From an uncultured Candidatus Actinomarina sp. (lineage in GTDB: Bacteria > Actinomycetota > Acidimicrobiia > Actinomarinales > Actinomarinaceae), in assembly GCA_902610815.1 (NCBI GenBank), contig CACLXG010000001.1, forward strand, positions 341,573 through 405,572: a DNA stretch of 64,000 nt, given 5' to 3'. Under the pieces are notes generated by a model that worked only from the letters and a program-made list of their open reading frames with translations, searched no databases and had not been told where the DNA came from. The position numbers and the translations under genes were made by a program. The first letter of the stretch is position 1. Each line of letters opens with the position of its first letter. Positions 29,618 to 64,000 of the stretch are shown piece by piece.

Positions 29618-29618
29618 A

Positions 29619-44959: not shown

Positions 44960-47422
44960 ACCATTAACAGATAACAATAAAGAGTTCCTCTCAACCTCAT
45001 TTAACTCTCTACTTTTCATTTTCTTCATTAGTGTAATTTGAATTAAAGAAAGAGGATCAAGATAAGCGTTTCTAATATTTAGTGTATTTTTTAAAATTTT
45101 ATTATCATCCAGCAAGTTATTGTGTTGCTTTATTTTTTTGATACATTCCATCGCTAATTTTGATTCTTTTAGTATGTCGTTGTAAATCTTCATTTCTTCT
45201 TCATCGAGCAAATTATCAACATATAATTTTGCAATTTTTAAATCAGACTTTGCAAGTGTCATTTCAATATTGCTTATTAAATTTTGCATAAATTCTGAGT
45301 TTTTATATATTTTCCTAACGTGATTTATGCCATACTTCTGAATCATGCTGTCAAAAGCTAATCCAGAACCATACCAGCCAGTTAAGGTATTTCGAGTCTG
45401 TGCCCATCCAAAAACCCAAGGTATAGCTCTGTAGTTTTGAAGTGACTTAGTATTCTTTTTTCTTTTACTCGGTCTAGAACCAATGTTTAAGATCGATAGA
45501 AGCTTTACAGGTGTTCCATTTTCAAAATAGTTAATTAAGTTTTCATTAGTAAAGAATTTTCTGTATTTTTCATAGGATAAGTCAGATAATTCTTGAAAAA
45601 ACTTTTGATTATGTATTGTCGTTTTGAACTTGTTTCCAGATTCATTGATAAATGCAACCGAACCTAATTTAATATTTTCAAAACCAAGATATCCAGTTGA
45701 GTACTTATCAGAAATAACTTCTCCTTGTTCTGTGTATCTAATTTTCGAAGATATTGTCCCTTTTGGTTGGGAACTTATTGAATTATAAGTAGGACCTCCT
45801 CCTCTACTTATAGTTCCTCCTCTACCATGAAAAAAAGTGACATTTACGTTTTCTTTAACTCCTTCCTTGAATAAGTTTATTTGTGCATTAAAAACATTCC
45901 ATTGAGAAGAGATTATTCCACCATCTTTATTTGAATCAGAATATCCCAACATAATTTCTTGATTATTATTTTGATATTTTTTAATAAATTTTTTATATTC
46001 ATCATTTGAAAATAGATTTTGAAAAATCTTATTTGAACTTTGTAAATCATGAATCTCTTCGATTAAAGGAGTGATCGAAGGAATATTCTCTATGGGAATT
46101 AGTTTTTTACACAATTTAAATAAGTTAAGGATATCTTTATCAGACTTTGTCATTGATAAAATAATTGAATTGAAAACATTTTTACCATATATATTTTGTA
46201 ACTCTGGTATCTCTTTAAGTAAATCTTCAAAGTCTAAAAATTCTTTACCTGCCTTTGCTTCAACAATTGATGAATTCTGTCTTACATCTAACGAAACGCC
46301 GTGGAACTCAAATTTTTTAACAAAATCAATGAAGTTAACTAGTTTTTTGTTTTTTATCTTGTCTCCGAATATTTCGGTAACACTTTGCTGAAATAATAAA
46401 ATATCATCTAAAAATTCTTGATAATACTTATAACCTTTTTTGTTTATTTGAAAATTTTCAAGCCTATGAAATACTAGTGAAAGAAATATTCTAAATGGTT
46501 CATCAAAATTTACCCTTTTGTAATGTTTGTAGTCTTCAGGTAGTAGTTTTTTATAATCTTCTATTCTTTTTGTTAAGAGTTTTGGACTCTCTACAAAATC
46601 AGTTGAAATACTAAACTCTTCAGAAAATTGTATAATTGCCTCTTTGTAAATTTGTAAAATCTGATTTGAATAAATCTTTAAAGCTTCTTTTGTTACTTTT
46701 GTTGTTACATAAGGATTGCCATCTTTGTCAGCACCAACCCATGAGCCAAATTGAAGATTAAAGTTTTTTGCTTTAGATGCTATTTCTTCATCTTCAATGA
46801 TATTTTGGTAGACATCTTTATATAAAATATCTAAATAATAAATTAAAGATTTTACTTCATCAATTGGATTTGGTTTTGTAGATCTGACTTCTCTTGTATA
46901 CCAAAGCTGTGTAATCAAGGAGTTGATTTCATTCAAATCGTTTGAGTCATTAATTTTTATAATTTCAGCAATTTTATATATTTTTTTTAATGTAGACTGA
47001 CGAGAACTTTCAGTTGGATGTGCGGTAAATACAGGAACAAAACTTAGATTTTGCTTTGTTACTTTTTTAATAGATATTCTAGATTTTTCTAATGTATGCT
47101 CTCTAAATACTTGTTCAGCTATGTTTGATAGATAGAAAAAAATTGTAAATGCTTTTGTAATAATATAGATTTCATCTGGATTAAGAGAATTTAAAGTTTT
47201 AAAGATTGCATCTAAGTATTTATTATTTTTAGATTGTCTATATTTTTTTGAATTTAATCGAATATTTTCTACTATTTTCAAGTATTTATTGCCAGCTTGC
47301 TCTTTAATTACATTACCAAGTTCACTTCCTAGTAAATTTATTGTTTTTGATAAAGAATTAAAATTAGGATTTATTTTATATCCTTTCAACGTTTGTAATT
47401 GTAAAACTTCCAGTTGAATCAA
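44930..47422 (-). CDS. ppc: Phosphoenolpyruvate carboxylase
   Basis: 830 aa with the PEPC signatures VFTAHPTESSRQS, GYSDSNKDGG and FHGRGGTISRGGGP, and a C-terminal ...NTG. Confidence 0.9.
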   Translation of the reverse strand: MIQLEVLQLQTLKGYKINPNFNSLSKTINLLGSELGNVIKEQAGNKYLKIVENIRLNSKKYRQSKNNKYLDAIFKTLNSLNPDEIYIITKAFTIFFYLSNIAEQVFREHTLEKSRISIKKVTKQNLSFVPVFTAHPTESSRQSTLKKIYKIAEIIKINDSNDLNEINSLITQLWYTREVRSTKPNPIDEVKSLIYYLDILYKDVYQNIIEDEEIASKAKNFNLQFGSWVGADKDGNPYVTTKVTKEALKIYSNQILQIYKEAIIQFSEEFSISTDFVESPKLLTKRIEDYKKLLPEDYKHYKRVNFDEPFRIFLSLVFHRLENFQINKKGYKYYQEFLDDILLFQQSVTEIFGDKIKNKKLVNFIDFVKKFEFHGVSLDVRQNSSIVEAKAGKEFLDFEDLLKEIPELQNIYGKNVFNSIILSMTKSDKDILNLFKLCKKLIPIENIPSITPLIEEIHDLQSSNKIFQNLFSNDEYKKFIKKYQNNNQEIMLGYSDSNKDGGIISSQWNVFNAQINLFKEGVKENVNVTFFHGRGGTISRGGGPTYNSISSQPKGTISSKIRYTEQGEVISDKYSTGYLGFENIKLGSVAFINESGNKFKTTIHNQKFFQELSDLSYEKYRKFFTNENLINYFENGTPVKLLSILNIGSRPSKRKKNTKSLQNYRAIPWVFGWAQTRNTLTGWYGSGLAFDSMIQKYGINHVRKIYKNSEFMQNLISNIEMTLAKSDLKIAKLYVDNLLDEEEMKIYNDILKESKLAMECIKKIKQHNNLLDDNKILKNTLNIRNAYLDPLSLIQITLMKKMKSRELNEVERNSLLLSVNGLAAGLRNTG

Positions 47423-48638
47423 ATATTAAAGATGTTATTTCGTTGAAATTTATATTTTGAAAATCGGAGTGAGGAGTGTGAATCAAAATTAGATCATAAT
47501 TTGAAAAGTTTTTTATATTTACTTCTTTTAAAATAGAAGTTTTGTTGACTATAAGCTCTTCGACAAATGGGTCATAAAAAGATACATCTGCACTCTTTTC
47601 TATAAGTGCCTGAACAATATCAATTGCTGGAGACTCTCTTGTGTCACTAATATCTTTTTTGTAAGCAACACCTAGTATTAATATTTTTGAATTCTTTAAA
47701 AGTATCTCTTTTTTATTCATTAACTCACTAACTCTTGAAACGACATAGTTAGGCATTGAGTTGTTTATTTCTTGAGCTAATTCTACAAATCGAACTGGTT
47801 GGCCAATCTGTCTTGTTTTAAATGATAAGTATTTTGGGTCAATAGGAATACAGTGTCCACCAACACCAGGACCTGGCCTAAATGACTGAAAACCAAATGG
47901 TTTTGTCTTTGCAGCTTCAACAACCTCCCAAATATCAATGTCTAACATGTTTGATAAAATAGCCAACTCATTAACCATCGCAATATTTACTTGCCTATAT
48001 GTATTTTCAATTAACTTAACCATTTCAGCTTCTCTTGTTCCAGAAACTTCTATAACTTCATCAATAATTGATTTATAAAATTTCGATATTTTTTCTAATG
48101 ACTTTTTGTTTATACCACTAACAATTTTTGGAGTATTTTTGAATGTCCACTCTTTATTTCCAGGATCAATTCGTTCAGGTGAATATCCCAATAAAAAATC
48201 TTCTCCAGCTTTTAAGTTTGAAATATTTTCAAGGATTGGCTGAACTATTTCTATAGTTGTCCCTGGATATGTAGTAGATTCCAAAATTACAATTTGACCT
48301 TTTTTTAAATTTTCTCCAATACTTTTTGAAGCAGCTTCTACATAGCTTAAGTCTGGCTGGTAGTCAGTTAATGGTGTAGGAACACTTATTACTATATGTT
48401 CACTGTCACCTAAAACATTTGAATCCGAAGTAAATGATAATTCTTCTGAAAGTGCATCACTTAAAGCTTTATCTGAAACATCCTCAACGTGGGATACAGC
48501 GTTATTTAGGTTTGATATTACAGAGTCATTTGTGTCATAACCAGCAACTTTCAAGGTATTACTCGCCGCTTCAACCGCTAATGGTAGCCCAACATATCCA
48601 AGACCAATTACCGCAAGATCGTATTTAAATTCACTCAT
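47376..48638 (-). CDS. Nucleotide-sugar dehydrogenase (UDP-N-acetyl-D-mannosamine/-glucosamine 6-dehydrogenase family, WecC/WbpA-like)
   Basis: 420 aa with an N-terminal NAD Rossmann motif (VIGLGYVGLPLAVE) and the catalytic Cys region (GVGGHCIPIDP). The adjacent wecB suggests a UDP-ManNAcA pathway. Confidence 0.75.
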   Translation of the reverse strand: MSEFKYDLAVIGLGYVGLPLAVEAASNTLKVAGYDTNDSVISNLNNAVSHVEDVSDKALSDALSEELSFTSDSNVLGDSEHIVISVPTPLTDYQPDLSYVEAASKSIGENLKKGQIVILESTTYPGTTIEIVQPILENISNLKAGEDFLLGYSPERIDPGNKEWTFKNTPKIVSGINKKSLEKISKFYKSIIDEVIEVSGTREAEMVKLIENTYRQVNIAMVNELAILSNMLDIDIWEVVEAAKTKPFGFQSFRPGPGVGGHCIPIDPKYLSFKTRQIGQPVRFVELAQEINNSMPNYVVSRVSELMNKKEILLKNSKILILGVAYKKDISDTRESPAIDIVQALIEKSADVSFYDPFVEELIVNKTSILKEVNIKNFSNYDLILIHTPHSDFQNINFNEITSLIFDSTGSFTITNVERI

Positions 48639-48640
48639 AT

Positions 48641-49720
48641 CTAACCAAATAAAATTTCATAAATTCTATCAGAAGTTTTACCATCCCAATATTTAATCAT
48701 TGTTTCATTTAAAATATTACTCTCTAAAGAATTATTTATTTCATTAATTATATTTTCCTTATTTATACCTATAACTCTATTTGTTCCTTTTGTAACTGTA
48801 ATCGGTCGCTCGGTTTCTTCTCTTAGAGTTAAACAATTTTTACCTAAATATGTGGTCTCTTCTTGAATACCTCCTGAATCAGTAAGAACTAAGCTACTGC
48901 CGTAAACAAGGGACATAAAATCAATATATGAAAGTGGTGCTATAAGATGGATATTTTTAAAAGAAATTTTTTGGTTATCGATAAAGTTTTTAAGCCTAGG
49001 GTGTGCTGGAAGTATAATTTCATAAGATTCTGTAAACTTGCCAACTGCTTGAAATATATTGTTTAAAATATTATCAGTAAGGTTAGAAGGCCTGTGAAGA
49101 GTCATTACAAAAAATGGTTTCGTAACATTTAGTTGCTCTTTTACCTCTTGTAAATTTTCAATTATTTTTTCTTTATTTTCTGACAAAGTGTCAATCATAA
49201 TATTTCCAACGTTGAAAATCTTATCTGCTGAAACTTTTTCATTTAATAAATTTTCCATTGCCTCTTCAGAGGGAATTAATAATAAGTCGCTTATTGCATC
49301 AACCATTATCCTGTTTCTTTCCTCTGGCATATTTAAGTTATGTGATCTTAAACCTGATTCAACATGAAATAAATATTTGTTTGTATTTTTAGCAGCTATT
49401 GAAGCTGCGAGAGTAGAGGTTACGTCTCCAAATACGCCAACTTTGTCTATTATGAAATTATTAAATACTTTTTCTAATTCTTCAACAATATATTGAAACT
49501 GCTTGCTTTGAGAATCTTTTGGAGCATCAAGATTTAGATCCGGACTTCTTAAATTTAAATCTTCAAAAATATTATTAGACATATTTTTGTCAAAATGCTG
49601 ACCGGTATGAATAAATAAAACACTCTTTTTATTTTCTTCTAATTTTTTTAAAAGCGGAGCGGCCTTTACAAAATTTGGCCTTGTACCAACAACAAGAGCA
49701 ATATCATATTCTTTAATCAC
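48641..49720 (-). CDS. wecB: UDP-N-acetylglucosamine 2-epimerase (non-hydrolysing), WecB-like
   Basis: 359 aa carrying ALVVGTRPNFVKAAPL, HTGQHFD and HVESGLRS motifs. Confidence 0.8.
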   Translation of the reverse strand: MIKEYDIALVVGTRPNFVKAAPLLKKLEENKKSVLFIHTGQHFDKNMSNNIFEDLNLRSPDLNLDAPKDSQSKQFQYIVEELEKVFNNFIIDKVGVFGDVTSTLAASIAAKNTNKYLFHVESGLRSHNLNMPEERNRIMVDAISDLLLIPSEEAMENLLNEKVSADKIFNVGNIMIDTLSENKEKIIENLQEVKEQLNVTKPFFVMTLHRPSNLTDNILNNIFQAVGKFTESYEIILPAHPRLKNFIDNQKISFKNIHLIAPLSYIDFMSLVYGSSLVLTDSGGIQEETTYLGKNCLTLREETERPITVTKGTNRVIGINKENIINEINNSLESNILNETMIKYWDGKTSDRIYEILFG

Positions 49721-49772
49721 TACTTTATGATTTTAGTGATGAAATAGTTATTAATGTACAACTATCATTGAA

Positions 49773-50735
49773 TTGGTGAAAAAAAAGATTGTTTTAAATG
49801 CATGCGGAGTTAAATCATTAGGTGGCGTAAAGCTTTTTATTGAGGCATTTGAGTACTTTTCAGATTTAAATGAATATATTATTGTTTTATATTCTGAAGA
49901 TGAATTTTATGGAGATTTAAAAAATCAAACTTATGAAAACAAAAATATTAAATTTATACAGCTTACAAAAAAAAGGTATCTTCACCCCTTTTTAAACCTA
50001 TTGATTGAAAAAGATTTAAAAAACGAAATTAATAGCAGTAGTGGAATTATTCATTTTGGAAATTTTGGATTTAATACTCAAGTGAAATCATTTATTTTTG
50101 TACAGAATATACTTCCACTCATATCAAAAAATATAAAAAATAGAATATTACTTTTTTTTATAAATAGAAGTTTTAAAAAGTGTGACAATATAATTGTTCA
50201 ATTAAGCCATACAGCTGAATTAATTAATAAGAAATATATAAAAAAAATTATACAAATAGGAGAAATTCAAAATACAAAAGTAAAAACCAATAAGAATAAT
50301 AATATTGTTTGTTTCGGGAGTGACGTACCAAATAAAAATTACAAATTTATGTTAAATGTTTTAAAATCCTTACCTGATAAAAACAAAATTACAATAGTAA
50401 ATCCACCAAATAAATTAAAAGAATTAAATTGTGTGTTTACTGAAACACATGAAGAAACCTTGAAGGTGATGTCTTTAAATGGAATATATTTTCATGCAAG
50501 TGAATTTGAGACTGTAGGGTTACCACTTTATGAGGCTCAAGAACTTGGATTAAAAATTGTGGTACCTAATAAACCTTACTCAAAATATTTTTTATCAAAT
50601 AATACCTTTCTTTATGATTATAAAAGTACCGAAGATGCAATTAGTAAAATTTACGACGCAGGCGTTGCTGAGGAAGACTATATATTAGCTAACTCTTACT
50701 CTGAAAAATGGGAAAAGGTTTTAGATAAAATCTAG
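49773..50735 (+). CDS. Glycosyltransferase (GT-B fold, family 1/4-like)
   Basis: 320 aa with the C-terminal EFETVGLPLYEAQELGLKIVVP motif (E-x7-E). It is the only plus-strand gene in this part of the island. Confidence 0.5.
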   Translation: MVKKKIVLNACGVKSLGGVKLFIEAFEYFSDLNEYIIVLYSEDEFYGDLKNQTYENKNIKFIQLTKKRYLHPFLNLLIEKDLKNEINSSSGIIHFGNFGFNTQVKSFIFVQNILPLISKNIKNRILLFFINRSFKKCDNIIVQLSHTAELINKKYIKKIIQIGEIQNTKVKTNKNNNIVCFGSDVPNKNYKFMLNVLKSLPDKNKITIVNPPNKLKELNCVFTETHEETLKVMSLNGIYFHASEFETVGLPLYEAQELGLKIVVPNKPYSKYFLSNNTFLYDYKSTEDAISKIYDAGVAEEDYILANSYSEKWEKVLDKI

Positions 50736-51947
50736 TTTATTTACTAATGTTCTAGGAGAGTATTCTTCAAGAAAAGCCTCATTAGAAAATTTATAAATAT
50801 TTGCAAATAAATTATTTAATTTTCTAATAAAATCTTCTTTATCTAATTCTTTTGAAATAACTAACAAATTAGGATACTTTTTTGATATTTCAACTACTGG
50901 GTCATCTTCTATTTCAGCAAAATGAACTACGGGCTTGCCTGTTGAAAGATATTCAATTACTTTACTTGGTAATTGTGCAGCGTTCTTATTTCCTATAGAT
51001 AAAAGACAATGAGTTGAAGATGCCATAATTTTTAGTGCTTCACTTCTTGAAACCATGTTCAAAAATTCATGATTATTCTTTTGTAACAAATGCTTGCTTA
51101 TTTCAATTTTTGAATCAGGATTAGTAAACCATTTAAACTTAAATTCTTCCAAATCTTCTAGATAATTTAAAACATTCTCAGAACTTCTTACTCCCTTCGT
51201 TAGAACTCCAAAATATCCAAAAATTATAGGCTTAGACAAATAATCATATGAAAGTGTCAATTTGTATATATCTTCATCAAAAGTGCTAATAGGCATACCA
51301 ACCATTAGCTTTTTTTTGTCAATATTGAAATAAGATGAATGAGTTTCAAGAGATTCTTTATGTGTGAACAAAATTTTATAAGCTAAGTTATAAAATTTTT
51401 TTTCATAATATTTATTTAAAAAAAAGTAAATTAAATGATTGTTTTCTTTTGCATTTTTCTTGAGTAAGAAAGGATCTCCAATATCCATAATCCACTTCTT
51501 TTTATTTTTTTTATTTAATATGTATGCAGCTAGATGGGATGAAAATGGAAGACTAACAGAAATTATATAATCATAATCCAAGTTTAAATTTTTTTTATTT
51601 CTCAAAATAGAAGTTATCCAAAACATCGAATAATCGGGCCAGGAAAAAGTTTTGTATAAAAACCTGTAAGAAAGTTTTAATATCCTAAATCCGAAATTTA
51701 ATAATGAAGAACTGTGAGACTTGTTAGAACCCTTTCGTAAATTTTCTACAACCCCTTCTGGATTTTTATTACCAACGTATATAATATTTTCTTTTTTTTC
51801 TTCTTGAGGCGTACCAGTTAATACCGTAACCTCATGACCTCTATTATTCAATTCATCGTAAATCATTTTCCATCTTGTGGTTCTAGGACTTTGGTGGGGC
51901 AAGAATTGATGTGAAACTATTAAAATTTTAGACATTCTTTTTCTCAC
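50721..51947 (-). CDS. Glycosyltransferase family 4
   Basis: 408 aa with an N-terminal GT4 region (ILIVSHQFLPHQSPRTTRWKMIYDELNNRGHEVTVLTG) and a C-terminal STGKPVV donor-binding segment. Confidence 0.6.
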   Translation of the reverse strand: MRKRMSKILIVSHQFLPHQSPRTTRWKMIYDELNNRGHEVTVLTGTPQEEKKENIIYVGNKNPEGVVENLRKGSNKSHSSSLLNFGFRILKLSYRFLYKTFSWPDYSMFWITSILRNKKNLNLDYDYIISVSLPFSSHLAAYILNKKNKKKWIMDIGDPFLLKKNAKENNHLIYFFLNKYYEKKFYNLAYKILFTHKESLETHSSYFNIDKKKLMVGMPISTFDEDIYKLTLSYDYLSKPIIFGYFGVLTKGVRSSENVLNYLEDLEEFKFKWFTNPDSKIEISKHLLQKNNHEFLNMVSRSEALKIMASSTHCLLSIGNKNAAQLPSKVIEYLSTGKPVVHFAEIEDDPVVEISKKYPNLLVISKELDKEDFIRKLNNLFANIYKFSNEAFLEEYSPRTLVNKLDFI

Positions 51948-53328
51948 TTAGAAATAAACCAATGAATGTTGCAAGCCAAACACTAAATTCTTCACCTTGA
52001 AAAAAATACATTATTAATATTACAAAAATTCCCATATTCAAATATTGATTGTATTGACTACGATCGACTGGTAAGTTTTTTAATGTTCTTATTAGTAACA
52101 GTATTAACCAAGCAATTCCAAATATTCCTGTCGAAAATAAAATATTAAGATAAAGATTATTAAATGAAACAATACTATTTTCATATCTTTCAATTATTAC
52201 CCCATTTCTAATGGAGTATTGCAAACTTGCCTGAGTTTTATTAAGTGCATAATTGTCTGAAAATTTTATATTTGAAATACCTAAACCTGAACCCAAGATA
52301 CTTATATTGTTTTCATAAATGTTCTCTCTCACTATATTTAAACTTTCAAATGAACCAATTCCCGAGTTAATTACAGCAAACAATCTAGAAAATATACTCG
52401 TAGCAATATTTGTAGAATTTTTTGCTCTATCCTGATCATCATCATAATATTCGCAACTACAGTAATCAGGTGAATAAGGAGGACACTGGTCTTCATCTAA
52501 AGGTGGGAATTTATAAGCAAATAAATTTGAAAACACCAAACAAGTAATTAAAACAAATATTGGGATTAGTAATTGTAAATTTAATTTTGATAATTTATAT
52601 GAAGATAGCATAAAAACAAGAAACGCAGCAATAATAAAACTTAAAACTCCATTAAGGCTTCTAGTTAAAACTAAACAAGTTATAGGTAGTAAGGATAAAA
52701 CATACCAATATTTTTTTTCTCTTGCATTATAAAAATATAAAGGAATTGTTGGTGCAATCCAAATAGCTAAAAAACTTGGTTCTCTAAAAGTTCCGTAGTT
52801 TCGTAACACAGTACAGGCTTTTACAATACTTTGAAATCCAATTCCAGTCCCCATCCTGTTCCTAGCTAGGTCAGGAAAATTCATTACATATGAAAAATAA
52901 GAAATTAATGAAAGGATTGAAATTATGATTGATGCATATGAAATTAATTCAATAATTTTATTTGTATTGTCATTGTTTAAAATTTTATTAACAGAATAAA
53001 TTATAGAAAAAAAAGAGAAAAAATTTAATATCCTTAATGAAACATACAATAATGGATTGGCGACTGAGTTGGTGATCAACGTTTCATATTGAAAAAATAA
53101 AAATATTAAAGTTATGCATACGCAATATAAAGTCCAAAAAAAATATTGCGAGGTTAAAGAGCTTATCTTAAATTTTTCATCAATAAAAAAATTGAAAAAT
53201 AACAATATAAATATTGCTGTAGATAACCACGGAAATGGTATACCAAAAATACTGAATGCATCTAATGCATTAAATAAAAAAGCTATAAAAAGAATCAAAT
53301 ATATTAAATTTTTATTTTTTAAAATCAA
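51928..53328 (-). CDS. O-antigen ligase/polymerase (Wzy-like) polytopic membrane protein
   Basis: 466 aa with ten or more predicted transmembrane helices and one large Cys-rich extracytoplasmic loop (CPPYSPDYCSCEYYDDDQD). It sits in the glycan cluster next to Wzx. Confidence 0.5.
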   Translation of the reverse strand: MILKNKNLIYLILFIAFLFNALDAFSIFGIPFPWLSTAIFILLFFNFFIDEKFKISSLTSQYFFWTLYCVCITLIFLFFQYETLITNSVANPLLYVSLRILNFFSFFSIIYSVNKILNNDNTNKIIELISYASIIISILSLISYFSYVMNFPDLARNRMGTGIGFQSIVKACTVLRNYGTFREPSFLAIWIAPTIPLYFYNAREKKYWYVLSLLPITCLVLTRSLNGVLSFIIAAFLVFMLSSYKLSKLNLQLLIPIFVLITCLVFSNLFAYKFPPLDEDQCPPYSPDYCSCEYYDDDQDRAKNSTNIATSIFSRLFAVINSGIGSFESLNIVRENIYENNISILGSGLGISNIKFSDNYALNKTQASLQYSIRNGVIIERYENSIVSFNNLYLNILFSTGIFGIAWLILLLIRTLKNLPVDRSQYNQYLNMGIFVILIMYFFQGEEFSVWLATFIGLFLSEKKNV

Positions 53329-54935
53329 CTAACCCTCTTATATCCATTTGAAAACAAAACTTTTACACCGTTATTATCTTCACCCCAAGAAGTATATTCT
53401 TCTAAATCGACATCATGAGAAAAATCTTCAATTAATACCTGTCCATCATAAATTGAAATTTTTCTATAAATTCTTTTTCCATTAAATTCTGCATAGCCTA
53501 AAAAATTATTTTTATTAAAAATTAATGTATGACCATCACCCATGTAATTTAACCTAAAACAATCGAATGCGTCCTCTTTTGGAATTTTAATATTAGATTT
53601 AGGACCCCAGTGAAATTCTAAAGATCTAAACTTGTTTCTTAATTTAATATCATCAGTATATGTTCCTGTACCTGGATCTCGTGTAATCCATCTACTATTT
53701 GAATAGCTCTCTATTGACAACTGATCATAATGTGAGTGACCTCCAATACCATTTTGACCGATAGGTCCACATCTTAAACTAAAATATTCATCATTATTTC
53801 TCCAGACATATAATCCAAAATCATTAAAACAATAACTCTCATAATCTTTTGAAAATATTTTTATTTTTTTATGACTAACTTTTGGCATTTGTTGCAAAGA
53901 AGGAGTGTCTGAATTAATTTCAAAATTAAATTTTTGTTCTATTTCAAACCAATCAAATTTAGGATAAAGTTTGTCAATTAAATCAATTAACCAAGTCATT
54001 TGTAAAGGTGCTTCTTCATCAAATCCAAAATAAAACAATCTACCTGAGTCATTATCTCCTACTTGAGCCAACTCACCATTGACCATTAGCTTTGTTAAGA
54101 AGATTTTATTGGTTTTTATTATCTCATCAATTTTTGGTAAGACTTTTGATTGACTATTAAACTCTTCAATCGCCAACTTGCATATTATTAAGGCCTCCGT
54201 AACAAAAGCTGCGTAATGTGTAGAGCCCTCAAAGCTTGTACCGTCTTCATAAAACTGCTTATTTAGCTCTGAAAATAATTCATTTTCATAATATAAAAAT
54301 TCTTCTTTATCATGATCAAAATTGAAAGAAGCAATTGTTAAAAGAATAGATGTCAACTCAATTAAATAATGGTTGCCTACAACATTTCCTTTGTTTTCAA
54401 GATTGCTTATTATGAATTCATAATGTTCACTAATATAAGAAAATAATAATTCTTTGTTATTTCCCAAAATTTTAGAAATCTCAAGATTTTCCTCTAATGC
54501 GAAAAGGTGAAAAATTAAATTTATATTTCTTATAGCTACATCCATTGGACTATTCCAATAAATCAATGGGAAACTACTGACATCAATATTTACTGATTTT
54601 GCTTTCTGTAAATATTGTAATCTTGAAGCTTCATAAGGAACTTTTACATCAGCAACGTTGAAATACGCTGGTTTTAGTTTTTTATTTGAAAATTTATAGT
54701 TTGTAAAAATATCATTTGTCAATACATATTGTTTTGAGTATCGACCAAATATTTTAATATTATTTACATCGACCATTTCATTTGGATTTGGTCTGCAATT
54801 TTGATTTATGAATTTCTGAAATTTAGTATCTTTTCGAATGAACAGTCTAAAGTTAGATGGAAATTTTATGTTAGATCCAAAAAAATAAGTTAAATCATAT
54901 TTAATTTTTCTAAGAAATTTTTTAAAACTATTCAT
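53325..54935 (-). CDS. Heparinase II/III-like family protein
   Basis: 536 aa with the central segment GPIGQNGIGGHSHYDQLSIE. This family is classically found next to asparagine-synthase-like amidotransferases in O-antigen/capsule loci. The assignment is by motif recollection only. Confidence 0.4.
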   Translation of the reverse strand: MNSFKKFLRKIKYDLTYFFGSNIKFPSNFRLFIRKDTKFQKFINQNCRPNPNEMVDVNNIKIFGRYSKQYVLTNDIFTNYKFSNKKLKPAYFNVADVKVPYEASRLQYLQKAKSVNIDVSSFPLIYWNSPMDVAIRNINLIFHLFALEENLEISKILGNNKELLFSYISEHYEFIISNLENKGNVVGNHYLIELTSILLTIASFNFDHDKEEFLYYENELFSELNKQFYEDGTSFEGSTHYAAFVTEALIICKLAIEEFNSQSKVLPKIDEIIKTNKIFLTKLMVNGELAQVGDNDSGRLFYFGFDEEAPLQMTWLIDLIDKLYPKFDWFEIEQKFNFEINSDTPSLQQMPKVSHKKIKIFSKDYESYCFNDFGLYVWRNNDEYFSLRCGPIGQNGIGGHSHYDQLSIESYSNSRWITRDPGTGTYTDDIKLRNKFRSLEFHWGPKSNIKIPKEDAFDCFRLNYMGDGHTLIFNKNNFLGYAEFNGKRIYRKISIYDGQVLIEDFSHDVDLEEYTSWGEDNNGVKVLFSNGYKRVS

Positions 54936-56133
54936 AAGATCTTTTGAAACTATAGGTGGTGATTACTCCAATGAAAATTTGAGATAAAATTATTGATAGT
55001 ATTGCAGGATTTCTCCCAAAACTATGTATAAAGTAATATATTCCGATCGATACAACTGATCCAAATAATATAGATTTTGTTAAATTGATTTCAAAATTTA
55101 ATGCTCTAGAAAATATAATATTTATGCGTGACCAAACCATAACTGGTAATGCAAAGAGTATCCAAGAAGTATATGTTGAAACTTCACTAAAATCCGTTCC
55201 CAACAATGAAATAAATAATTCAGATGCTATTCCTTTAAAAAAGAAAAATGCTATTGGGATTATAAATGATATTAAAAATACTCTCTTTAATTTTATTCTA
55301 ATTTCAGAAACATCATTTTTATTTTTGGCTTTGCTCAATTCTGGAAATAATATATCAAGGCTTGCTGCAACTAGTTGGAAGATTATCTCTAAAATTCGCC
55401 TTGACCAGGCCAGTACACCCAAAGTGGAACCTGAATAGAAAAGCCCCAATAAAACAATATCTAATTCTGAAATAAGCGCACTTGAAAAGGTTGTAAGAAC
55501 CATCTTTTTGCCAGATGCTTGCAAGTCGTTTTTAACAGTTGTATTCGAATTTAAATCAATATCATTTTTTGGTATAGAAAAATGAGCAACAGCAAAAAAT
55601 ATTAGAAGGGTAATAACCTGAAAAATAATCAATGAAAGTATTGAAAATCCTTGCATAACAAGAATCCATGCACCTAACCCATAAATAATTGTGCGTAGAA
55701 TTATTTGTTTAGAGCTAGTTACAAAATCTCCTTTAGCTTGATAGTAAGCAAGAGCCACATGGATCATTTCATTAAAAACAAATCCGATAAGAAATAAAAT
55801 TGTCATTGGTAAATCTCTCTTAAGAATTAAAGTTAAAGGTATTAAAATAATTAAACTCATTAATAAATTTCTCAGAATCAGTGCATACGCATTTTGAAAC
55901 ATCGATTTAGAACTTTTATTATTTTGAGCCAAAAATTTTGTTACAACCAAAGCCAATGACATTACTGCAGCTGTACCGATTAACACAGAAAGACTTTTGG
56001 AAGAAGCGTACTCACCATACATCTCAGCGCCATAAACTCTGCTAATTATTGTTATTAGAAAGAAGTTAACTGATAGAAGAATGAACTGCATAAGTGATAT
56101 ATAAATTGTATTTTTCTTCCAGTTATTAATCAT
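54928..56133 (-). CDS. wzx: Polysaccharide flippase (Wzx/MOP superfamily)
   Basis: 401 aa with about 12 transmembrane helices and N-terminus typical of O-unit flippases. Located in the glycan cluster. Confidence 0.6.
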   Translation of the reverse strand: MINNWKKNTIYISLMQFILLSVNFFLITIISRVYGAEMYGEYASSKSLSVLIGTAAVMSLALVVTKFLAQNNKSSKSMFQNAYALILRNLLMSLIILIPLTLILKRDLPMTILFLIGFVFNEMIHVALAYYQAKGDFVTSSKQIILRTIIYGLGAWILVMQGFSILSLIIFQVITLLIFFAVAHFSIPKNDIDLNSNTTVKNDLQASGKKMVLTTFSSALISELDIVLLGLFYSGSTLGVLAWSRRILEIIFQLVAASLDILFPELSKAKNKNDVSEIRIKLKRVFLISFIIPIAFFFFKGIASELFISLLGTDFSEVSTYTSWILFALPVMVWSRINIIFSRALNFEINLTKSILFGSVVSIGIYYFIHSFGRNPAILSIILSQIFIGVITTYSFKRSYE

Positions 56134-57971: not shown

Positions 57972-58020
57972 TTATCTAACTTTAATGTAATATTTTTTAT
58001 TTAAAGAACATAAATTATTT

Positions 58021-58656
58021 TTGTTTAAAGTAATTAGTATGAAATATTTTATTGATTATATTTTTTTGTTAATCATTTTCCCTATTTTTACTGTTGTTTT
58101 TCCAATAATTTCCTTAATTATTTTGTTATTTGATTCAGGACCTGTAATTTACTCACAAAAAAGAGTAGGACTAAAGGGTCAAGAGTTTAAATTACACAAA
58201 TTCAGAACAATGTCTGTATCTTCAGATGAAAAAATTCATAAAGATCACTATAAAGATCTTTCACAAAATAAAAAAATTGAGCCATCCTTAACTCCTGATG
58301 ATCCAATCAGAATTGAAAATGATGATAGGATTACCAAAATAGGGTCTTTTTTAAGAAAAACTTCTTTAGATGAATTACCAAATATCCTAAATGTTTTGAA
58401 AGGTCAAATGTCTATTGTTGGGCCTAGACCGTTAGTTAAATATGAGTCTGATCTTTATGGAGAATACAAAGAAAAAAGGAATTCGATAAAGCCTGGGATT
58501 ACAGGTCTAGCTCAAATCCAAGGAAGGTTAGATTTAAGTTTGCAAGAAAGACTTTACTGGGATATAAAATACGTTGATAAAAAGTCTTTTAACTACGATC
58601 TAATTATTATTTTCAAAACTGTTTATTCAGTTCTCTCAAGAAGAGGAGCAAATTAA
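58021..58656 (+). CDS. Undecaprenyl-phosphate sugar phosphotransferase (small PglC/WbaP-C-terminal type initiating transferase)
   Basis: 211 aa with one N-terminal transmembrane segment and the 'bacterial sugar transferase' motifs MSIVGPRP and KPGITGLAQI. Confidence 0.8.
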   Translation: MFKVISMKYFIDYIFLLIIFPIFTVVFPIISLIILLFDSGPVIYSQKRVGLKGQEFKLHKFRTMSVSSDEKIHKDHYKDLSQNKKIEPSLTPDDPIRIENDDRITKIGSFLRKTSLDELPNILNVLKGQMSIVGPRPLVKYESDLYGEYKEKRNSIKPGITGLAQIQGRLDLSLQERLYWDIKYVDKKSFNYDLIIIFKTVYSVLSRRGAN

Positions 58657-59817: not shown

Positions 59818-60971
59818 TTTAAAAATGATCTTGAGATATCAAAATCATAATTTTCTCTAGCGTGTTTGTTAAAGTTGTTATTTTTATTTAAATCTATCAA
59901 ATCATCAACAATTACTTTAGAAGCAGTTCCATTGCCAAAAGGGTGTTTCCAAACAGTACTTTTTAATTCATAAGCTTTAAAATGTACATCTTCTAGATTG
60001 TCATTTTTAATAGTAGGATCAAATTTTATAGATGATTTGACCTCATACACTTCTGGTCTTTCTGTACTATGTCTCATCTGAACTGTTGGGATTCCTAATA
60101 TACATGCTTCTTCTATTACTGTTCCTGAATCAGATAAGCAATAAGATGAGTTTTTGAGTAGGTAGATAAACTCAAGGTAACCAATGGGGTCTACAACTAA
60201 GATGTTATTATTTAACTTCATTCCCGAATCTTTTAACTGTCTTTGAGTGGCGTATCCCATTGGGAAAACTACTTTTTTATTAGTTGTATTTATTAAATTA
60301 ATTATGCTTTCAAAGCTTTCTGAACTTAAAATATTTTCTCTTCTGTGGCAAGTAACTAATACGAACTCGTCTTCTTTGATAAAATTTTTGACTTTATCAT
60401 CAAGAAAATTAACCCCTGTATCAAATAAATCTTTAAATTCATCAAGAATATCAACTATAGGGTTTCCAGTAACTTTTATTATGCTGTCAGATATACCTTC
60501 ATTTAACCCTTGTTTCTTATATGTGGGAAGATATGAATAAATTCTATCTGAAAGATGATCAATTGTTTTTCTGTATTTTTCTTCAGGCATTCTCCAGTCA
60601 TATGACCTCATACATCCCTCTATGTGAACAATTGGTGTATTGTGCTGTGAAACACCTATAGAACCCATCACTGTATTAGTATCACCCAGAAACATAACAG
60701 CTTTATATTTATGATTTTCTAGGTGTGAGTAAGTTTCATTAATTATCGAGGAAACTGTAGTTGCATCGTTTGTAACATCGATATTAAATTCATAATCTGG
60801 TTTTGGAGTGTTTAGTTGATTAAAAAAAACATCTTTCATATTTTCTGAATAATGTTGTCCAGACCAAATAAAGTCAAAATCAATATCTGTACTTTGATTT
60901 AATAATTTTATTATTTTGCTTGCCCTAATTACATCAGGCCTAATTCCAAGAATTAATCCAATATCTTTCAT
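59814..60971 (-). CDS. UDP-N-acetylglucosamine 2-epimerase family (FnlC/Cap5G-like C2 epimerase)
   Basis: 385 aa with LGIRPDVIRASK and HIEGCMRS (a variant of HVEAGLRS). It is the second WecB-family enzyme in the island and sits next to RmlD-like and cupin genes. Confidence 0.6.
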   Translation of the reverse strand: MKDIGLILGIRPDVIRASKIIKLLNQSTDIDFDFIWSGQHYSENMKDVFFNQLNTPKPDYEFNIDVTNDATTVSSIINETYSHLENHKYKAVMFLGDTNTVMGSIGVSQHNTPIVHIEGCMRSYDWRMPEEKYRKTIDHLSDRIYSYLPTYKKQGLNEGISDSIIKVTGNPIVDILDEFKDLFDTGVNFLDDKVKNFIKEDEFVLVTCHRRENILSSESFESIINLINTTNKKVVFPMGYATQRQLKDSGMKLNNNILVVDPIGYLEFIYLLKNSSYCLSDSGTVIEEACILGIPTVQMRHSTERPEVYEVKSSIKFDPTIKNDNLEDVHFKAYELKSTVWKHPFGNGTASKVIVDDLIDLNKNNNFNKHARENYDFDISRSFLK

Positions 60972-61870
60972 GTCGTATTAAGAATACCTTTAGTTAAACT
61001 GCTTTCAGATAATTCTTTAATATTTTCTTCTATTGTTGGAATATTTCCATATCCGGCATCTAACCATAATGTTTTATTTGCATCTTCGTTTTCAGTTTTT
61101 AAAGTTCTATTTACCGAATTTTCAGAGTTAATTTTTTCAACCTTCACATCAACACCAAAAAACTTTTTAAAATATATTAATAAGTCGTATTTTGAAACCT
61201 CATCCTTAGGTATTACATGTTGTAAATTATTTTTGAAATTATTAGTTTTAATCATTCCGTGGACAATCTTTGCAAAATTTAATGTTGTAATCCCATTCCA
61301 CATATGATTCATAAAACCATTTACTTTTCCTTCATTTTGATTTAAAAACCAATTTAGCAAAGACTTTCCCTGGCCTGCTTCTGGCCCGACAATACTTCCT
61401 CTTAATAAATATTTGTTTAAATTTACTGCTTCTCCACCAATTTTTGATTTTCCGTATACATCAATTGCATCTTGAAAAGAAGATTCTATGTAATCACCAG
61501 TTGCACCTGAAAAAACACAGTCCGTACCAATTTGAATAAATTTAAAATTATGTTCTGAGGCAAGGTTTGAAATTTTTAATGGAAAATAGCTATTTACTTC
61601 TAGCGCTTTATTAATTGAATTGTTACTTTCTTCATTAATTTCAGGTTTGATTAGCCCAATGCAATTTATCAGAAAATCTGGATTTATATCTTTGATCAAC
61701 TTTTCTAAATCATCAGTTAATGCGTCAAATTTATAAGAATTTTCATGTGGATAATTCTGCTTATTATTTCTATAAGTTAAAAATATATCAAATTCATTAG
61801 TGTTAATGAAATATTTGGATACCATATTTCCAAGCATTCCACCTGAACCAAGTATCAATAACTTATTCAT
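60968..61870 (-). CDS. dTDP-4-dehydrorhamnose reductase (RmlD)-like sugar-nucleotide reductase
   Basis: The Rossmann motif LLILGSGGMLG lies directly after Met21 of the ORF, so the start is placed at the ATG at 61870..61868, which gives an 8-nt ATGAATAA overlap with the upstream gene. The YGKSKIGGE (YxxxK) motif is RmlD-like. The ORF-track start at 61930 would add 20 unrelated residues. Confidence 0.55.
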   Translation of the reverse strand: MNKLLILGSGGMLGNMVSKYFINTNEFDIFLTYRNNKQNYPHENSYKFDALTDDLEKLIKDINPDFLINCIGLIKPEINEESNNSINKALEVNSYFPLKISNLASEHNFKFIQIGTDCVFSGATGDYIESSFQDAIDVYGKSKIGGEAVNLNKYLLRGSIVGPEAGQGKSLLNWFLNQNEGKVNGFMNHMWNGITTLNFAKIVHGMIKTNNFKNNLQHVIPKDEVSKYDLLIYFKKFFGVDVKVEKINSENSVNRTLKTENEDANKTLWLDAGYGNIPTIEENIKELSESSLTKGILNTT

Positions 61871-62309
61871 AAAAATTTGGATTAAGTTCGCTCCACGGAT
61901 CCCAAAATTTAGAATCAAAACGATAATCATCTTTGACCGACTTATCTAAAGGTAAAGATGAGAAGTATCTAATACTATTATTTTCAGTTAAATTCATTGC
62001 GCCATTTGCATAATTATTTGGTACATACAAAATTCCATCTGTTGGAGTTAAAGTAAATTTATGAATTTTTATATCATTAGATGGGTTATCAAAATCTTCT
62101 ATGTGTACAGCACAAACTAAGAATTCTCCCTCTTCAACACTAATCCACTTTTCTTCTATTTTGTGTCCGTGCCAAGCTCGAACTGTTTTTATTAATTCAT
62201 TCTGCACTTTATATGTTCTAACTACATTTTTTAAATTAAGTTCATTTGTAAAAAAAACCGTTCCCCTATCGTCTGAGTGTGAATTGCTCGAAAACAAAAT
62301 AGGTTCCAT
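61863..62309 (-). CDS. WxcM/FdtA-like cupin (sugar-nucleotide 3,4-ketoisomerase family)
   Basis: 148 aa small cupin with TVRAWHGHKIEEKW (a His-x-His metal/active-site pair) resembling FdtA/QdtA isomerases. Confidence 0.45.
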   Translation of the reverse strand: MEPILFSSNSHSDDRGTVFFTNELNLKNVVRTYKVQNELIKTVRAWHGHKIEEKWISVEEGEFLVCAVHIEDFDNPSNDIKIHKFTLTPTDGILYVPNNYANGAMNLTENNSIRYFSSLPLDKSVKDDYRFDSKFWDPWSELNPNFYE

Positions 62310-62311
62310 TT

Positions 62312-63244
62312 TTATTTAACTCCATATTTTTGTAAAAAATTTTGATTTGAATATCTAGGGTCATTTATATCTTTAATTCTATTTGAAGAAATTAACTCAT
62401 ACATTTCATTTATGCCTTGTGTTAAATCGACAGTGGCTTGAAATCCAGTAGCGTCTTTTAATTTGTCACTAGAAACTTGGTAATTTCGAGCATCTTGAAA
62501 TGGAAGAGGTGTTGTTTCTATCTCAACGTCACTAATTTTGTTTTTAATCTCGTTAGCAATTTCGATAATTTTAAAATTTTTGTAATGAATATTAAATACA
62601 CCGTTTGTTTGAGTATCAAGTGTATGAGCTATAGCATTTGCTACATCTTTCACATGAAGAAGAGGCCTCCATTGCTCACCCCCAAAAACACTCATTTTCT
62701 TATCAATATAGGCTTTGGTGGTTAAGATATTTACAACTAAATCCAGTCTAATTCTTGAAAACTTATCACCAATTCCAAAGAGGGTCCCTAATCTAAAAAT
62801 AATTGAATCTGAGTCAGCTAAATACTTTTCTGCAATAAGCTTTGAAGAAGCGTATTCAGAAAGTGGATTAACTTCAGAACTTTCATCAAGAACCCCTTCT
62901 TGAGCTCCGTAAACTGAACATGTAGAGAGAAATACTATTTTTCCTTTAAAATTTTTAGCAAGGTTTTTTACAGTTTCTGAATTAATTTCGTGAGTAAGGG
63001 CAGGATTTATTGCACAAGCTCCATCACCCACCAAAGCGGCTAGCCATATTACAGCATCAAATTGATCTAAAATATTGTTAATTTTTTTATAGTCTCTAAT
63101 GTCTCCAAATATAAAATTTACATTTTTCCTGTAAGAATTTTCATAAATTAAAGAATCATAAACTGTAACTTCATTTTCTTTTAATAATAAATCTACTATG
63201 CCACCTCCGACATAGCCTGCCCCGCCAACAATTAATACTTTCAT
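62312..63244 (-). CDS. NAD-dependent epimerase/dehydratase (extended SDR)
   Basis: 310 aa with N-terminal VLIVGGAGYVGG and catalytic YASSK. Confidence 0.7.
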   Translation of the reverse strand: MKVLIVGGAGYVGGGIVDLLLKENEVTVYDSLIYENSYRKNVNFIFGDIRDYKKINNILDQFDAVIWLAALVGDGACAINPALTHEINSETVKNLAKNFKGKIVFLSTCSVYGAQEGVLDESSEVNPLSEYASSKLIAEKYLADSDSIIFRLGTLFGIGDKFSRIRLDLVVNILTTKAYIDKKMSVFGGEQWRPLLHVKDVANAIAHTLDTQTNGVFNIHYKNFKIIEIANEIKNKISDVEIETTPLPFQDARNYQVSSDKLKDATGFQATVDLTQGINEMYELISSNRIKDINDPRYSNQNFLQKYGVK

Positions 63245-63340
63245 CTTCTTTAATAGTATATGCTTTTATTTTCTTAATAATTATTGTTTATTTTTTTGCA
63301 AAATATTTTCTTACACAAATATATACCAAGCTTTGTTACC

Positions 63341-64000
63341 ATGTTTACTGTGAGTAAAAACATTCTTGTTACTGGGAGTTCAGGTTTTATTGGCTTTAAT
63401 CTTTCAAAACAACTACTCAGTGAAGGTCACAATGTTACAGGTATTGACTCATTTAATGAAGCTTACGATCCGAGTTTTAAAAGAATAAGACAACAAATAC
63501 TTAAAAAAGATTCAAATTTTAAAGATTATGAATTGAATTTAGATATTTATAAAAATTTAGAACATATTAGAGATACTGAGGATTTTAATTATGATATTGT
63601 ATTTCACTTAGCTGCAAGAGCAGGTGTGAGGCAGAGCTTTTTAGATCCTGTTTCATATATAAAAGATAATGCTATTGGCACTACAAACATAGCTAATTTT
63701 GTTAAAGAACTTGGAATAAAAAAATTAGTCTTAGCTTCAACATCCTCAATTTATGGAAATAGTGGCACAAATAAGATGGTTGAAGGAGTTGATGAAAAGA
63801 TAGAACCACCTTCAATCTATGCCGCTTCAAAGTTGTCTGGTGAAGTGTTTGCAAAAAATATTCTAGAAAATTCAGAAACTAATGTTATCATTACAAGATT
63901 CTTCACAGTTTATGGTCCTTTTGGAAGACCAGATATGTCAGTCTTACGATTTATACATTGGATTGTCGAAGGTAAGAAGGTTAATTTATTTGGCGACGGT
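63341..64000 (+). CDS. NAD-dependent epimerase/dehydratase (UDP-glucuronate 4-epimerase / CapI-like), partial; continues beyond the window
   Basis: ATG at 63341. The N-terminus ILVTGSSGFIGFNLSKQLL is a Rossmann motif, and YAASK is the catalytic YxxxK. The ORF is open to the window end. Confidence 0.65.
   Translation, partial: MFTVSKNILVTGSSGFIGFNLSKQLLSEGHNVTGIDSFNEAYDPSFKRIRQQILKKDSNFKDYELNLDIYKNLEHIRDTEDFNYDIVFHLAARAGVRQSFLDPVSYIKDNAIGTTNIANFVKELGIKKLVLASTSSIYGNSGTNKMVEGVDEKIEPPSIYAASKLSGEVFAKNILENSETNVIITRFFTVYGPFGRPDMSVLRFIHWIVEGKKVNLFGDG

Follow-up and report, generated by a model that had tools for sequence, protein, structure and literature searches.

A probable core cell-wall polysaccharide gene cluster beside ppc in Candidatus Actinomarina

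We analysed a 64,000-nt stretch of DNA (the window) from an uncultured Candidatus Actinomarina sp. (assembly GCA_902610815.1, contig CACLXG010000001.1, positions 341,573-405,572 of the forward strand), in which a block of glycan-biosynthesis genes occupies positions 47376-64000, next to the core gene ppc. This block is probably the ppc-proximal 16.6 kb of a ~29-kb, 25-gene cell-wall polysaccharide cluster that is a fixed core feature of Actinomarina and not a flexible island. An earlier reading of the sequence alone had recognised a cell-surface glycan biosynthesis cluster at these positions and had it extend beyond the window, and both claims held. ORF (open reading frame) calls and profile searches revealed 15 tightly packed ORFs with glycan-biosynthesis signatures, each assigned to a family, some of them on weak matches (Table 1), and in relatives the cluster runs ~12.8 kb past the window end, to a total of ~28.7 kb and 25 genes. 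Fifteen glycan-pathway genes in a row are far beyond chance. The same reading had taken the block for a hypervariable flexible island and had held that identical gene content among strains, together with uniform metagenomic recruitment, would speak against this. Identical content is what the synteny comparison found: 12 species representatives and over 100 contigs from metagenomes have the same genes, arranged in one order and on the same strands. This corrects the assumption that a glycan cluster in a streamlined marine genome is a hypervariable "metagenomic island". Actinomarina appears instead to be two-layered in its envelope glycan genetics, with a fixed ~29-kb cluster and a separate variable island.

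Conserved gene order and the limits of the cluster

Families were assigned by Pfam and NCBIfam profile searches with their gathering or cutoff scores and refined by sequence search of solved structures. Comparison loci were fetched by four anchors, namely ppc, the glycosyltransferase (GT) GT4_c of the cluster, the UDP-xylose synthase UXS beyond the window (a metagenome scan, 80 loci) and dnaG. The GT4_c scan was alignment-based and took one genome per GTDB species, its loci coming from Actinomarina single-cell genomes and metagenome-assembled genomes (MAGs). An earlier species-genome scan by ppc peptide patterns gave no loci, the patterns being poorly conserved.

The 12 species-representative loci of the GT4_c scan, with GT4_c identities from 96% down to 63%, were all syntenic with the window, and lineages at 70% GT4_c identity were syntenic as well. 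The ppc-anchored contigs carried four ppc alleles, 97% and ~79-80% identical to that of the window, and in all of them the genes from WecC to AsnB adjoined ppc in the order WecC, WecB, opposite-strand GT, GT4, Wzy, heparinase-like, Wzx and AsnB. A junction test showed ppc directly next to WecC in each of 12 loci, and the two genes adjoined in 10 further ppc-anchored contigs as well. GT4_c orthologues were 88-89% identical where ppc was only ~79% identical, and one identical GT4_c protein was present on 169 contigs. The whole cluster was found in the same order on eight contigs from eight samples. A tblastn matrix gave the same picture, each window gene being present wherever a locus covers its position.

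In the junction test, neighbouring genes of the window cluster stayed neighbours in all of the 11-49 loci covering each pair, with one exception. SDR1 and SDR2, two extended short-chain dehydrogenase/reductase (SDR) genes, were adjacent in 21 of 50 loci, including the window lineage, and ~1.3 kb apart in the other 29. The gene lying between them in those lineages is Wzy_C-like, ~1.2 kb long and codes for 389 aa (called at 5360-6529 of locus L020); it is the only gene-content polymorphism that we found in the cluster. The strand changes at 49773, 50721, 58021, 58636 and 63341 are exactly where the sequence-only reading had put them. It had seen a mosaic in them; the switches are common to all lineages and are therefore not marks of recent patchwork. 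They are ancient.

Beyond the window, SDR2 is followed in all lineages by SDR3, two further glycosyltransferases (GT_d and GT_e), UXS, recognised by its motifs, and UGDH. Further on come GT_f, a Glycos_transf_4 gene of the WecA/MraY family (WecA/TagO-like), a nucleotidyltransferase (NTP_transferase), an LCP ligase (LytR_cpsA_psr; present in the conserved cluster of relatives, as in L118-L120 and at 4757-5896 of L053) and a large Wzy_C-like membrane protein. The cluster then gives way to tRNA-Met, a small SCP2 ORF, tRNA-Asn, dnaG, glyS, uppS, ybeY, phoH, lepA, rpsT and leuS. The cluster is thus flanked by core genes, with ppc at the near end and tRNA-Met/tRNA-Asn-dnaG at the far end. In all nine contigs that read through the far end, the tRNA pair was directly followed by dnaG and other core genes. 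We detected no tRNA in the 64-kb window, nor in the 16 GT4_c-anchored loci scanned.

Given these data, it is very unlikely that the cluster is a hypervariable flexible glycotype island made of strain-specific, horizontally acquired gene sets and marked by under-recruitment in metagenomes. What can be said for such an island is that GC is 28.5% in the cluster and 30.8% elsewhere in the window, falling to 24.8% in GT_a, and that Actinomarinales do have a glycan-related flexible island of ~28% GC. In addition, the KEGG list for that island (Table S3 of the paper describing it) names wecB, wecC, asnB, UGDH and UXS1, which weighs against a fixed locus, although this overlap may mean that the authors drew their island generously, to include a similar cluster or the same one. 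It also counts against the fixed reading that anchors within the cluster are blind to replacement of the whole cluster; the flank-anchored loci number 22 for ppc, representing four ppc alleles, and ~9 for dnaG. On the other side, content, order and strands are invariant with no break inside the window cluster, core genes flank it and the window lacks tRNAs, contigs from eight samples assemble straight through, and every gene is under purifying selection (see below), whereas tRNAs bound the published island, its content varies within species and selA is associated with it.

That island, fGI1/HVR, measures 43-79 kb, has ~28% GC (compared with ~32-33%), is bounded by tRNAs, contains five tRNAs and differs in content even within species (López-Pérez et al. 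2020, PMC7771536). Genes listed for it include selA, selB and argS, none of which occurs near the present cluster. The two resemble each other in being from the same organisms, in envelope-glycan function and in slightly low GC (PMC7771536; "Actinomarina, resolved", bioRxiv 2026), and a tRNA-Met and a tRNA-Asn stand at one end of our full cluster too. They differ in that our cluster is invariant, has no tRNA on its ppc side and has housekeeping genes directly outside both ends. The core genes at both ends and the missing ppc-side tRNA set it apart from the published tRNA-bounded island, and we conclude that it is a distinct conserved locus and not fGI1/HVR.

Among 16 metagenome contigs reaching the far end, 12 end at tRNA-Asn/tRNA-Met or no more than a few hundred bases away (L038, L039, L044, L056, L057, L067, L070, L075, L082, L098, L105 and L112, in their first 0-400 bases). 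These stops are likely assembly breaks at tRNAs shared by co-occurring species, and strain-specific insertions may exist at these tRNAs. We considered the tRNA-Met/tRNA-Asn pair as the start of the published variable island and rejected this, because long-read and other contigs continue into dnaG, glyS, uppS and more core genes. The distribution of contig ends around ppc was uninformative, the contigs there being simply short. The Wzy_C-like gene beside tRNA-Met (2786-4780 of L053, and orthologues) encodes a 655-664-aa membrane protein that matches Wzy_C weakly and includes a large domain outside the membrane. It is the most divergent protein of the full cluster, 37-67% identical and often only partly alignable, compared with 72-88% for UXS. 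Two MAG contigs labelled as other organisms, VMCO01000079.1 ("Flavobacteriaceae bacterium"; L023) and NYXO01000051.1 ("Methanobacteriota archaeon"; L032), also carry the cluster, with GT4_c 96% and 67% identical, respectively, which suggests binning contamination.

Sequence divergence, recombination and base composition

Compared with the closest lineage, dN/dS was 0.08-0.26 for all cluster genes, indicating that all of them are functional and under purifying selection. Amino-acid conservation from the phosphoglycosyl transferase (PGT) gene to SDR1 equalled or exceeded that of core genes, and the genes from GT_a to AsnB diverged faster.

Synonymous divergence (pS) was uneven along the cluster. 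Against the closest lineage, it was 0.23-0.39 from WecC to AsnB, 2-4 times higher than the 0.07-0.13 from PGT to SDR2 or the 0.135 of ppc, a comparison in which ppc was taken from one contig (L001) and the cluster genes from another (L025). Against AG-447-I21, the deviation was opposite, with pS of 0.27-0.54 from GT_a to SDR1 and 0.57-0.75 in 13 flanking genes. Against the L002 lineage, the scorable cluster genes (GT_a to Wzx) were saturated. The opposite deviations in the first two comparisons cannot be produced by a gene-specific rate and fit homologous allele exchange by recombination. A recombinant pattern was also found in three further loci (L027-L029), in which heparinase-like, Wzx and AsnB genes are near those of the window (68-79%) and GT_a, GT4_b and Wzy are near those of L020 (70-73%). 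Judged from these alignments, whole homologous alleles appear to have been swapped between lineages, so that the cluster would vary in sequence and not in gene content. Breakpoints are suggested at WecB|GT_a and near SDR1|SDR2. The cluster is also a clean locus at which to follow recombination between Actinomarina species that occur together.

A stronger version of this idea is that the locus, fixed in content, is an allele-level replacement island, in which diverged versions of the GT, Wzy, heparinase-like, Wzx and AsnB genes are kept, for example by phage pressure, and swapped to give serotype-like variants. This is a serious possibility, if short of an even one. It would account for the raised pS from WecC to AsnB, for the lowered pS against AG-447-I21 and for the mixture of window-like and L020-like blocks in L027-L029. 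However, pS is near saturation in distant comparisons, the two-contig origin of the closest-lineage values weakens that contrast, and there is no evidence of alleles that differ in the structure of their product. Exchange may also be general, given that a tract lies outside the cluster at 37-39.7 kb, with 94-97% nucleotide identity to a lineage that is 68-80% identical in the flanks. Gene by gene, this stretch (37076-39676), which encodes TauE, RNase H, a luciferase-like protein and a 156-aa ORF, is 91-97% identical in nucleotides to the L002 lineage (pS 0.12-0.35), and its neighbours are only 68-82% identical (pS ~0.55-0.69). It looks like a recent between-species recombination tract outside the glycan cluster, and recombination is thus not special to the cluster.

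The GC content of the window is ~30%, and that of the cluster lies below every flank window of equal size (minimum 29.6%), a small difference. Low values were strongest in membrane-protein and GT genes, from GT_a, the lowest of the cluster, to the heparinase-like gene. We rejected low GC as a sign of foreign origin, given the invariant gene content and the purifying selection on every gene. Within the window, GC is lowest at 29000-32000 (23.6-25.4%), where an exonuclease/GIY-YIG/UVR-domain protein and a ccmA-like ABC ATPase are encoded, outside the glycan cluster, so low GC is not specific to surface-glycan genes.

A predicted wall polymer and its known relatives

The family assignments of the sequence-only reading largely stood (Table 1). 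The WecC-like dehydrogenase and WecB both scored above their NCBIfam cutoffs, and the Wzx, small PglC-type, AsnB-like, heparinase II/III-like and RmlD-like proteins all had Pfam matches. Other calls stood in part. Three GTs were found in the window where three or four had been counted, and their matches, like that of the Wzy-like protein, fell below the gathering score; the Wzy-like call gains from the hydrophobic segments described below. For the second 2-epimerase, called FnlC-like, the match to CapG agrees with that call, and an archaeal WecB-type enzyme scores better. The two proteins read as SDR epimerases do belong to the epimerase/dehydratase family, SDR1 being of oxidoreductase/epimerase type and SDR2 uronate-4-epimerase-like. 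One call, the FdtA-like cupin, failed: searched against Pfam at E <= 0.01 the cupin matched only dTDP_sugar_isom, with the weak RmlC-type score of Table 1, and NCBIfam gave nothing.

Table 1 Features of the glycan cluster within the window and at its ppc boundary.
Feature	Position	Strand	Supporting match
ppc, core gene forming the near boundary, outside the cluster	44930..47422	-	PEPcase 1.2e-205
UDP-N-acetylhexosamine 6-dehydrogenase, WecC/Cap5O-like, 420 aa	47376..48638	-	UDPG_MGDP_dh N, central and C domains
Non-hydrolysing UDP-GlcNAc 2-epimerase WecB, 359 aa	48641..49720	-	Epimerase_2 7e-93; TIGR00236 284 bits, cutoff 210
GT-B glycosyltransferase GT_a, 320 aa, lone plus-strand gene	49773..50735	+	weak Glycos_transf_1, 2.7e-6
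GT4-type glycosyltransferase GT4_b, 408 aa	50721..51947	-	weak Glyco_transf_4 and Glycos_transf_1 matches
Wzy-like polymerase or ligase, 466 aa, ~8 membrane segments	51928..53328	-	Wzy_C 7.8e-6, 26.2 bits, cutoff 31.7
Heparinase II/III-fold protein, 536 aa, no membrane or signal segment	53325..54935	-	Hepar_II_III_C 1.2e-10, Hepar_II_III_N 1.5e-3
Wzx-type flippase, 401 aa, ~9 membrane segments	54928..56133	-	Polysacc_synt_3 5.4e-14, 52.6 bits, cutoff 23
AsnB-type glutamine amidotransferase, 613 aa	56130..57971	-	Asn_synthase 1.7e-65 and GATase_7; TIGR01536 424 bits, above cutoff
Small monotopic phosphoglycosyl transferase (PGT), PglC/Cap5M type; ORF 211 aa, relatives 205 aa from ATG at 58039	58021..58656	+	Bac_transf 1e-57
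GT4-type glycosyltransferase GT4_c, 393 aa	58636..59817	-	weak Glyco_transf_4 match
Second WecB-family 2-epimerase, 385 aa	59814..60971	-	Epimerase_2 2e-69; TIGR00236 207.7 bits, just below 210 cutoff
RmlD-like NAD(P)H 4-keto reductase, ORF 320 aa (relatives called at 300 aa)	60968..61930	-	RmlD_sub_bind 4e-16; solved RmlD proteins 1e-8
Small cupin, 148 aa, possible sugar 3- and/or 5-epimerase	61863..62309	-	weak dTDP_sugar_isom (RmlC) match, 1.9e-4
Extended SDR (SDR1), 310 aa, oxidoreductase/epimerase type	62312..63244	-	Epimerase family 8e-35
Divergent spacer, 96 bp, site of the extra Wzy_C-like gene in other lineages	63245..63340		junction test
Extended SDR (SDR2), cut by the window end, 331 aa in relatives	63341..64000	+	Epimerase 2.8e-40; resembles uronate 4-epimerases

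Genes for the supply of uronic-acid nucleotide sugars are present, with WecB, the WecC/Cap5O-like dehydrogenase and the uronate-4-epimerase-like SDR in the window and UGDH beyond it. The dehydrogenase scored 425.7 bits with TIGR03026 (cutoff 189.8), and its best solved relatives are 4r16, a UDP-N-acetylmannosaminuronic acid (UDP-ManNAcA) dehydrogenase (5e-73), and Cap5O (9e-66); an exact look-up of the window protein gave no identical protein on record. WecB orthologues were 56-92% identical in all lineages whose locus covers the gene. The best solved relatives of the second 2-epimerase are the archaeal UDP-GlcNAc 2-epimerase 4neq (1e-61) and CapG 7ya2 (3e-48). The cupin is conserved in all lineages (64-97% identical), and a sequence search of solved structures gave it no meaningful relative. 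SDR1 aligns over its full length to 6vo6 (1.4e-38), which we take to be Cj1427; it has the S/T...YxxxK motif and matches Polysacc_synt_2 at 9e-4 only, and a role as 4,6-dehydratase was ruled out, the Asp-Glu pair of these enzymes being absent. The full-length SDR2 orthologue in L025 is closest to 5u4q, 6zl6 and MoeE5.

Among the genes of assembly and modification, GT_a keeps its position and opposite strand in all lineages, and syntenic orthologues of GT4_b were 52-89% identical. The Wzy-like protein has eight hydrophobic segments, and its orthologues carry a precomputed Wzy_C match; polymerase and ligase are indistinguishable by sequence. It is the fastest-diverging gene of the window, at 40-43% identity in distant lineages. 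The Wzx protein has in addition a weak WZX_like NCBIfam match. The small PGT, 68-98% identical across lineages, matches only the C-terminal catalytic part of WbaP/WcaJ models. The heparinase-fold protein gave no solved relative by sequence search; its orthologue is intact in every lineage (536-551 aa) with dN/dS of 0.10. The second-best model for the AsnB-type enzyme was TIGR03108, eps_aminotran_1 (the WbpS/WbqG family), at 360 bits, below cutoff. By analogy with WbpS and WbqG, which form uronamides (PMC7468200), we infer that this enzyme may convert a uronic acid to a uronamide. A literature search found no papers on the pairing of heparinase II/III and AsnB proteins in glycan clusters.

We propose the following pathway. 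WecB and the WecC/Cap5O-like dehydrogenase would make UDP-ManNAcA. SDR1 as a C4-oxidoreductase, the cupin as an epimerase, the RmlD-like reductase and the second 2-epimerase would make a rarer epimerised sugar, and GT4_c, encoded right after those genes, would transfer it. The uronate-4-epimerase-like SDR might provide further uronic sugars, and UGDH and UXS would provide glucuronate and xylose. The small PGT would start the repeat unit on undecaprenyl phosphate, and the WecA/TagO-like enzyme could also start a unit. Extension would be carried out by the three GT-B transferases in the window and three beyond it, with the amidotransferase turning a uronic acid into its amide and the heparinase-fold protein, presumably cytoplasmic, modifying a uronic residue. 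Wzx would then flip the unit, the Wzy-like protein would polymerise it, and the LCP ligase would attach the polymer to peptidoglycan; the pairing of this ligase with the WecA/TagO-like enzyme points to attachment through a GlcNAc-phosphate linkage, as in the ManNAcA-glucose teichuronic acid of the actinobacterium Micrococcus luteus (PMC3005890). The predicted product is a phosphate-free, uronic-acid-rich, teichuronic-acid-like wall polymer with a role like that of a "common antigen", the variable glycotype island being elsewhere. A phosphate-free acidic polymer would make sense in phosphate-poor surface water, and no better lead than the fixed cluster is at hand to the wall chemistry of a bacterium that ranks among the most abundant and smallest free-living ones of the sea.

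Several observations speak against this wall-polymer proposal. For the three window GTs and the Wzy-like protein, all Pfam matches fall short of the gathering score. Neither the 15 window proteins nor the precomputed annotations for the 10 genes further on showed a chain-length regulator (Wzz/PCP). The cluster contains two different initiating transferases and may therefore make two products, or a linkage unit and a polymer. What the sugars are, what the SDR, cupin and reductase act on and what the heparinase-fold protein does are all deduced from sequence, and the composition of the Actinomarina envelope has been stated to be unknown (López-Pérez et al., PMC7771536).

With respect to known systems, this one is ordinary in kind, and its gene set is closest to Staphylococcus aureus cap5/8 and the teichuronic-acid operons. 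Like cap5/cap8, whose sugars are ManNAcA, L-FucNAc (N-acetyl-L-fucosamine) and D-FucNAc, it pairs a Cap5O-like dehydrogenase with a WecB/Cap5P-type epimerase, has a CapG-like second 2-epimerase with a GT4 gene directly after it, and contains a small Bac_transf initiator of Cap5M size, GT4s, Wzx and a Wzy-like protein. Unlike cap5/cap8, it lacks CapE and CapF types by sequence, its SDR being closest to 6vo6 and its reductase and cupin being separate small proteins; it also lacks the CapA/B/C chain-length and kinase module, adds the AsnB-type and heparinase-fold proteins and, beyond the window, UGDH, UXS and the WecA-like gene, and is conserved order-wide and not serotype-specific. Of the UDP-L-FucNAc pathway (FnlA/B/C, equivalent to CapE/F/G), only the CapG-like step was found; the FnlA/CapE dehydratase and the FnlB/CapF reductase were not found, as judged by the profile and motifs of SDR1 and by comparing the reductase and cupin with solved structures.

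The teichuronic acid systems of Bacillus subtilis (tuaABCDEFGH; its composition is used here as generally known) and Micrococcus luteus share with the cluster a Bac_transf initiator, Wzx-like and Wzy-like proteins, GT4s, NDP-sugar dehydrogenases and a lipid carrier. A further likeness is the ManNAcA building block in an actinobacterium, together with the LCP ligase in the Actinomarina cluster: in M. luteus, teichuronic acid is a peptidoglycan-anchored polymer whose building blocks are ManNAcA and glucose (PMC3005890). In contrast to the tua operon, the WecC-like dehydrogenase scores only 146 bits against the TuaD model (cutoff 700), no equivalent of TuaF (Wzz-like) or of the GT2 protein TuaG was seen in Actinomarina, and sugar-modifying enzymes are many more.

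The enterobacterial common antigen (wec/rff) offers the likeness of a glycan conserved throughout a taxon beside a separate hypervariable glycan locus, and shares WecB and WecC for ManNAcA, Wzx, a Wzy-like protein and, beyond the window, a WecA-like GlcNAc-1-phosphate transferase. No Pfam or NCBIfam match to WecG/TagA (GT26) or to the Fuc4NAc genes WecD, WecE and WecF was found among the window GTs, those beyond the window are Glycos_transf_1, and the cluster contains no aminotransferase. The Actinomarina cluster also differs in lacking WzzE, in having a PglC-type initiator, an amidotransferase and a heparinase-fold protein, and in its monoderm host with an LCP ligase.

The adjoining SDR, small cupin and 4-keto reductase genes resemble those of capsular heptose modification in Campylobacter jejuni (Cj1427, Cj1430 and Cj1428), which oxidise C4, epimerise C3/C5 and reduce C4 of a nucleotide sugar (PMC10680097). 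They differ in that no heptose-nucleotide supply genes were seen and that the cupin and reductase have no significant match to the C. jejuni enzymes. The WecB-family 2-epimerase that follows the trio suggests a substrate of the UDP-N-acetylhexosamine type.

A different product is also conceivable, with the pathway glycosylating proteins or a lipid anchor and its Wzy_C proteins acting as O-oligosaccharyltransferases or ligases and not as polymerases. The Wzy_C domain is common to WaaL ligases and PglL-type O-oligosaccharyltransferases, the full cluster holds two or three Wzy_C-like proteins, and the small PglC-type initiator and the missing chain-length regulator would suit such a role. We nevertheless regard it as distinctly unlikely, because an LCP ligase and a WecA/TagO-like enzyme stand in the same conserved cluster and the ManNAcA supply matches known actinobacterial teichuronic acid. 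Six GTs and many sugar-nucleotide enzymes fit a polymer repeat and a complex oligosaccharide alike and do not discriminate. The sequence-only reading had considered a Wzx/Wzy pathway noteworthy in an actinobacterial context; the actinobacterial context is right, the host being Ca. Actinomarina, but such pathways are common in Gram-positive bacteria.

Going further than a fixed wall-polysaccharide cluster, one may combine these elements into a joint reading that is bold and, taken as a whole, rather unlikely. Actinomarina would devote ~2.6% of a ~1.1-Mb genome to an invariant, phosphate-free "common" wall polysaccharide rich in uronic acid and uronamide, separate from its variable glycotype island. 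The heparinase-fold protein would not be a lyase but, paired with the AsnB-type enzyme, a biosynthetic uronate modifier, for example a C5-epimerase acting on nucleotide- or lipid-linked ManNAcA, and diversity towards phages would come from allele swaps of Wzx, Wzy and GT genes and not from changes in content.

Genes next to the cluster

The sequence-only reading had placed the cluster downstream of ppc. This holds only in plus-strand coordinates; in the direction of transcription, the cluster is found 5' of ppc, shares its strand and runs into its start. Counted from the TTG start of ppc, the stop of the WecC-like gene overlaps ppc by 47 nt (47376-47422); counted from the start of the 820-aa form used in relatives, the overlap is 17 nt. 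Because of this same-strand overlap, ppc may be co-transcribed with the last two cluster genes. Relatives of ppc are numerous, with hundreds at 78-97% identity, and the few with a source label are Candidatus Actinomarina or Actinomycetota. The remainder of the window is of housekeeping character, comprising the mraW/dcw region, leuB, ccm genes, RNase P RNA, MMPL and ppc. The RNase P RNA, of bacterial class A, lies at 36680-37020 (277 bits) and is the sole Rfam match in the window.

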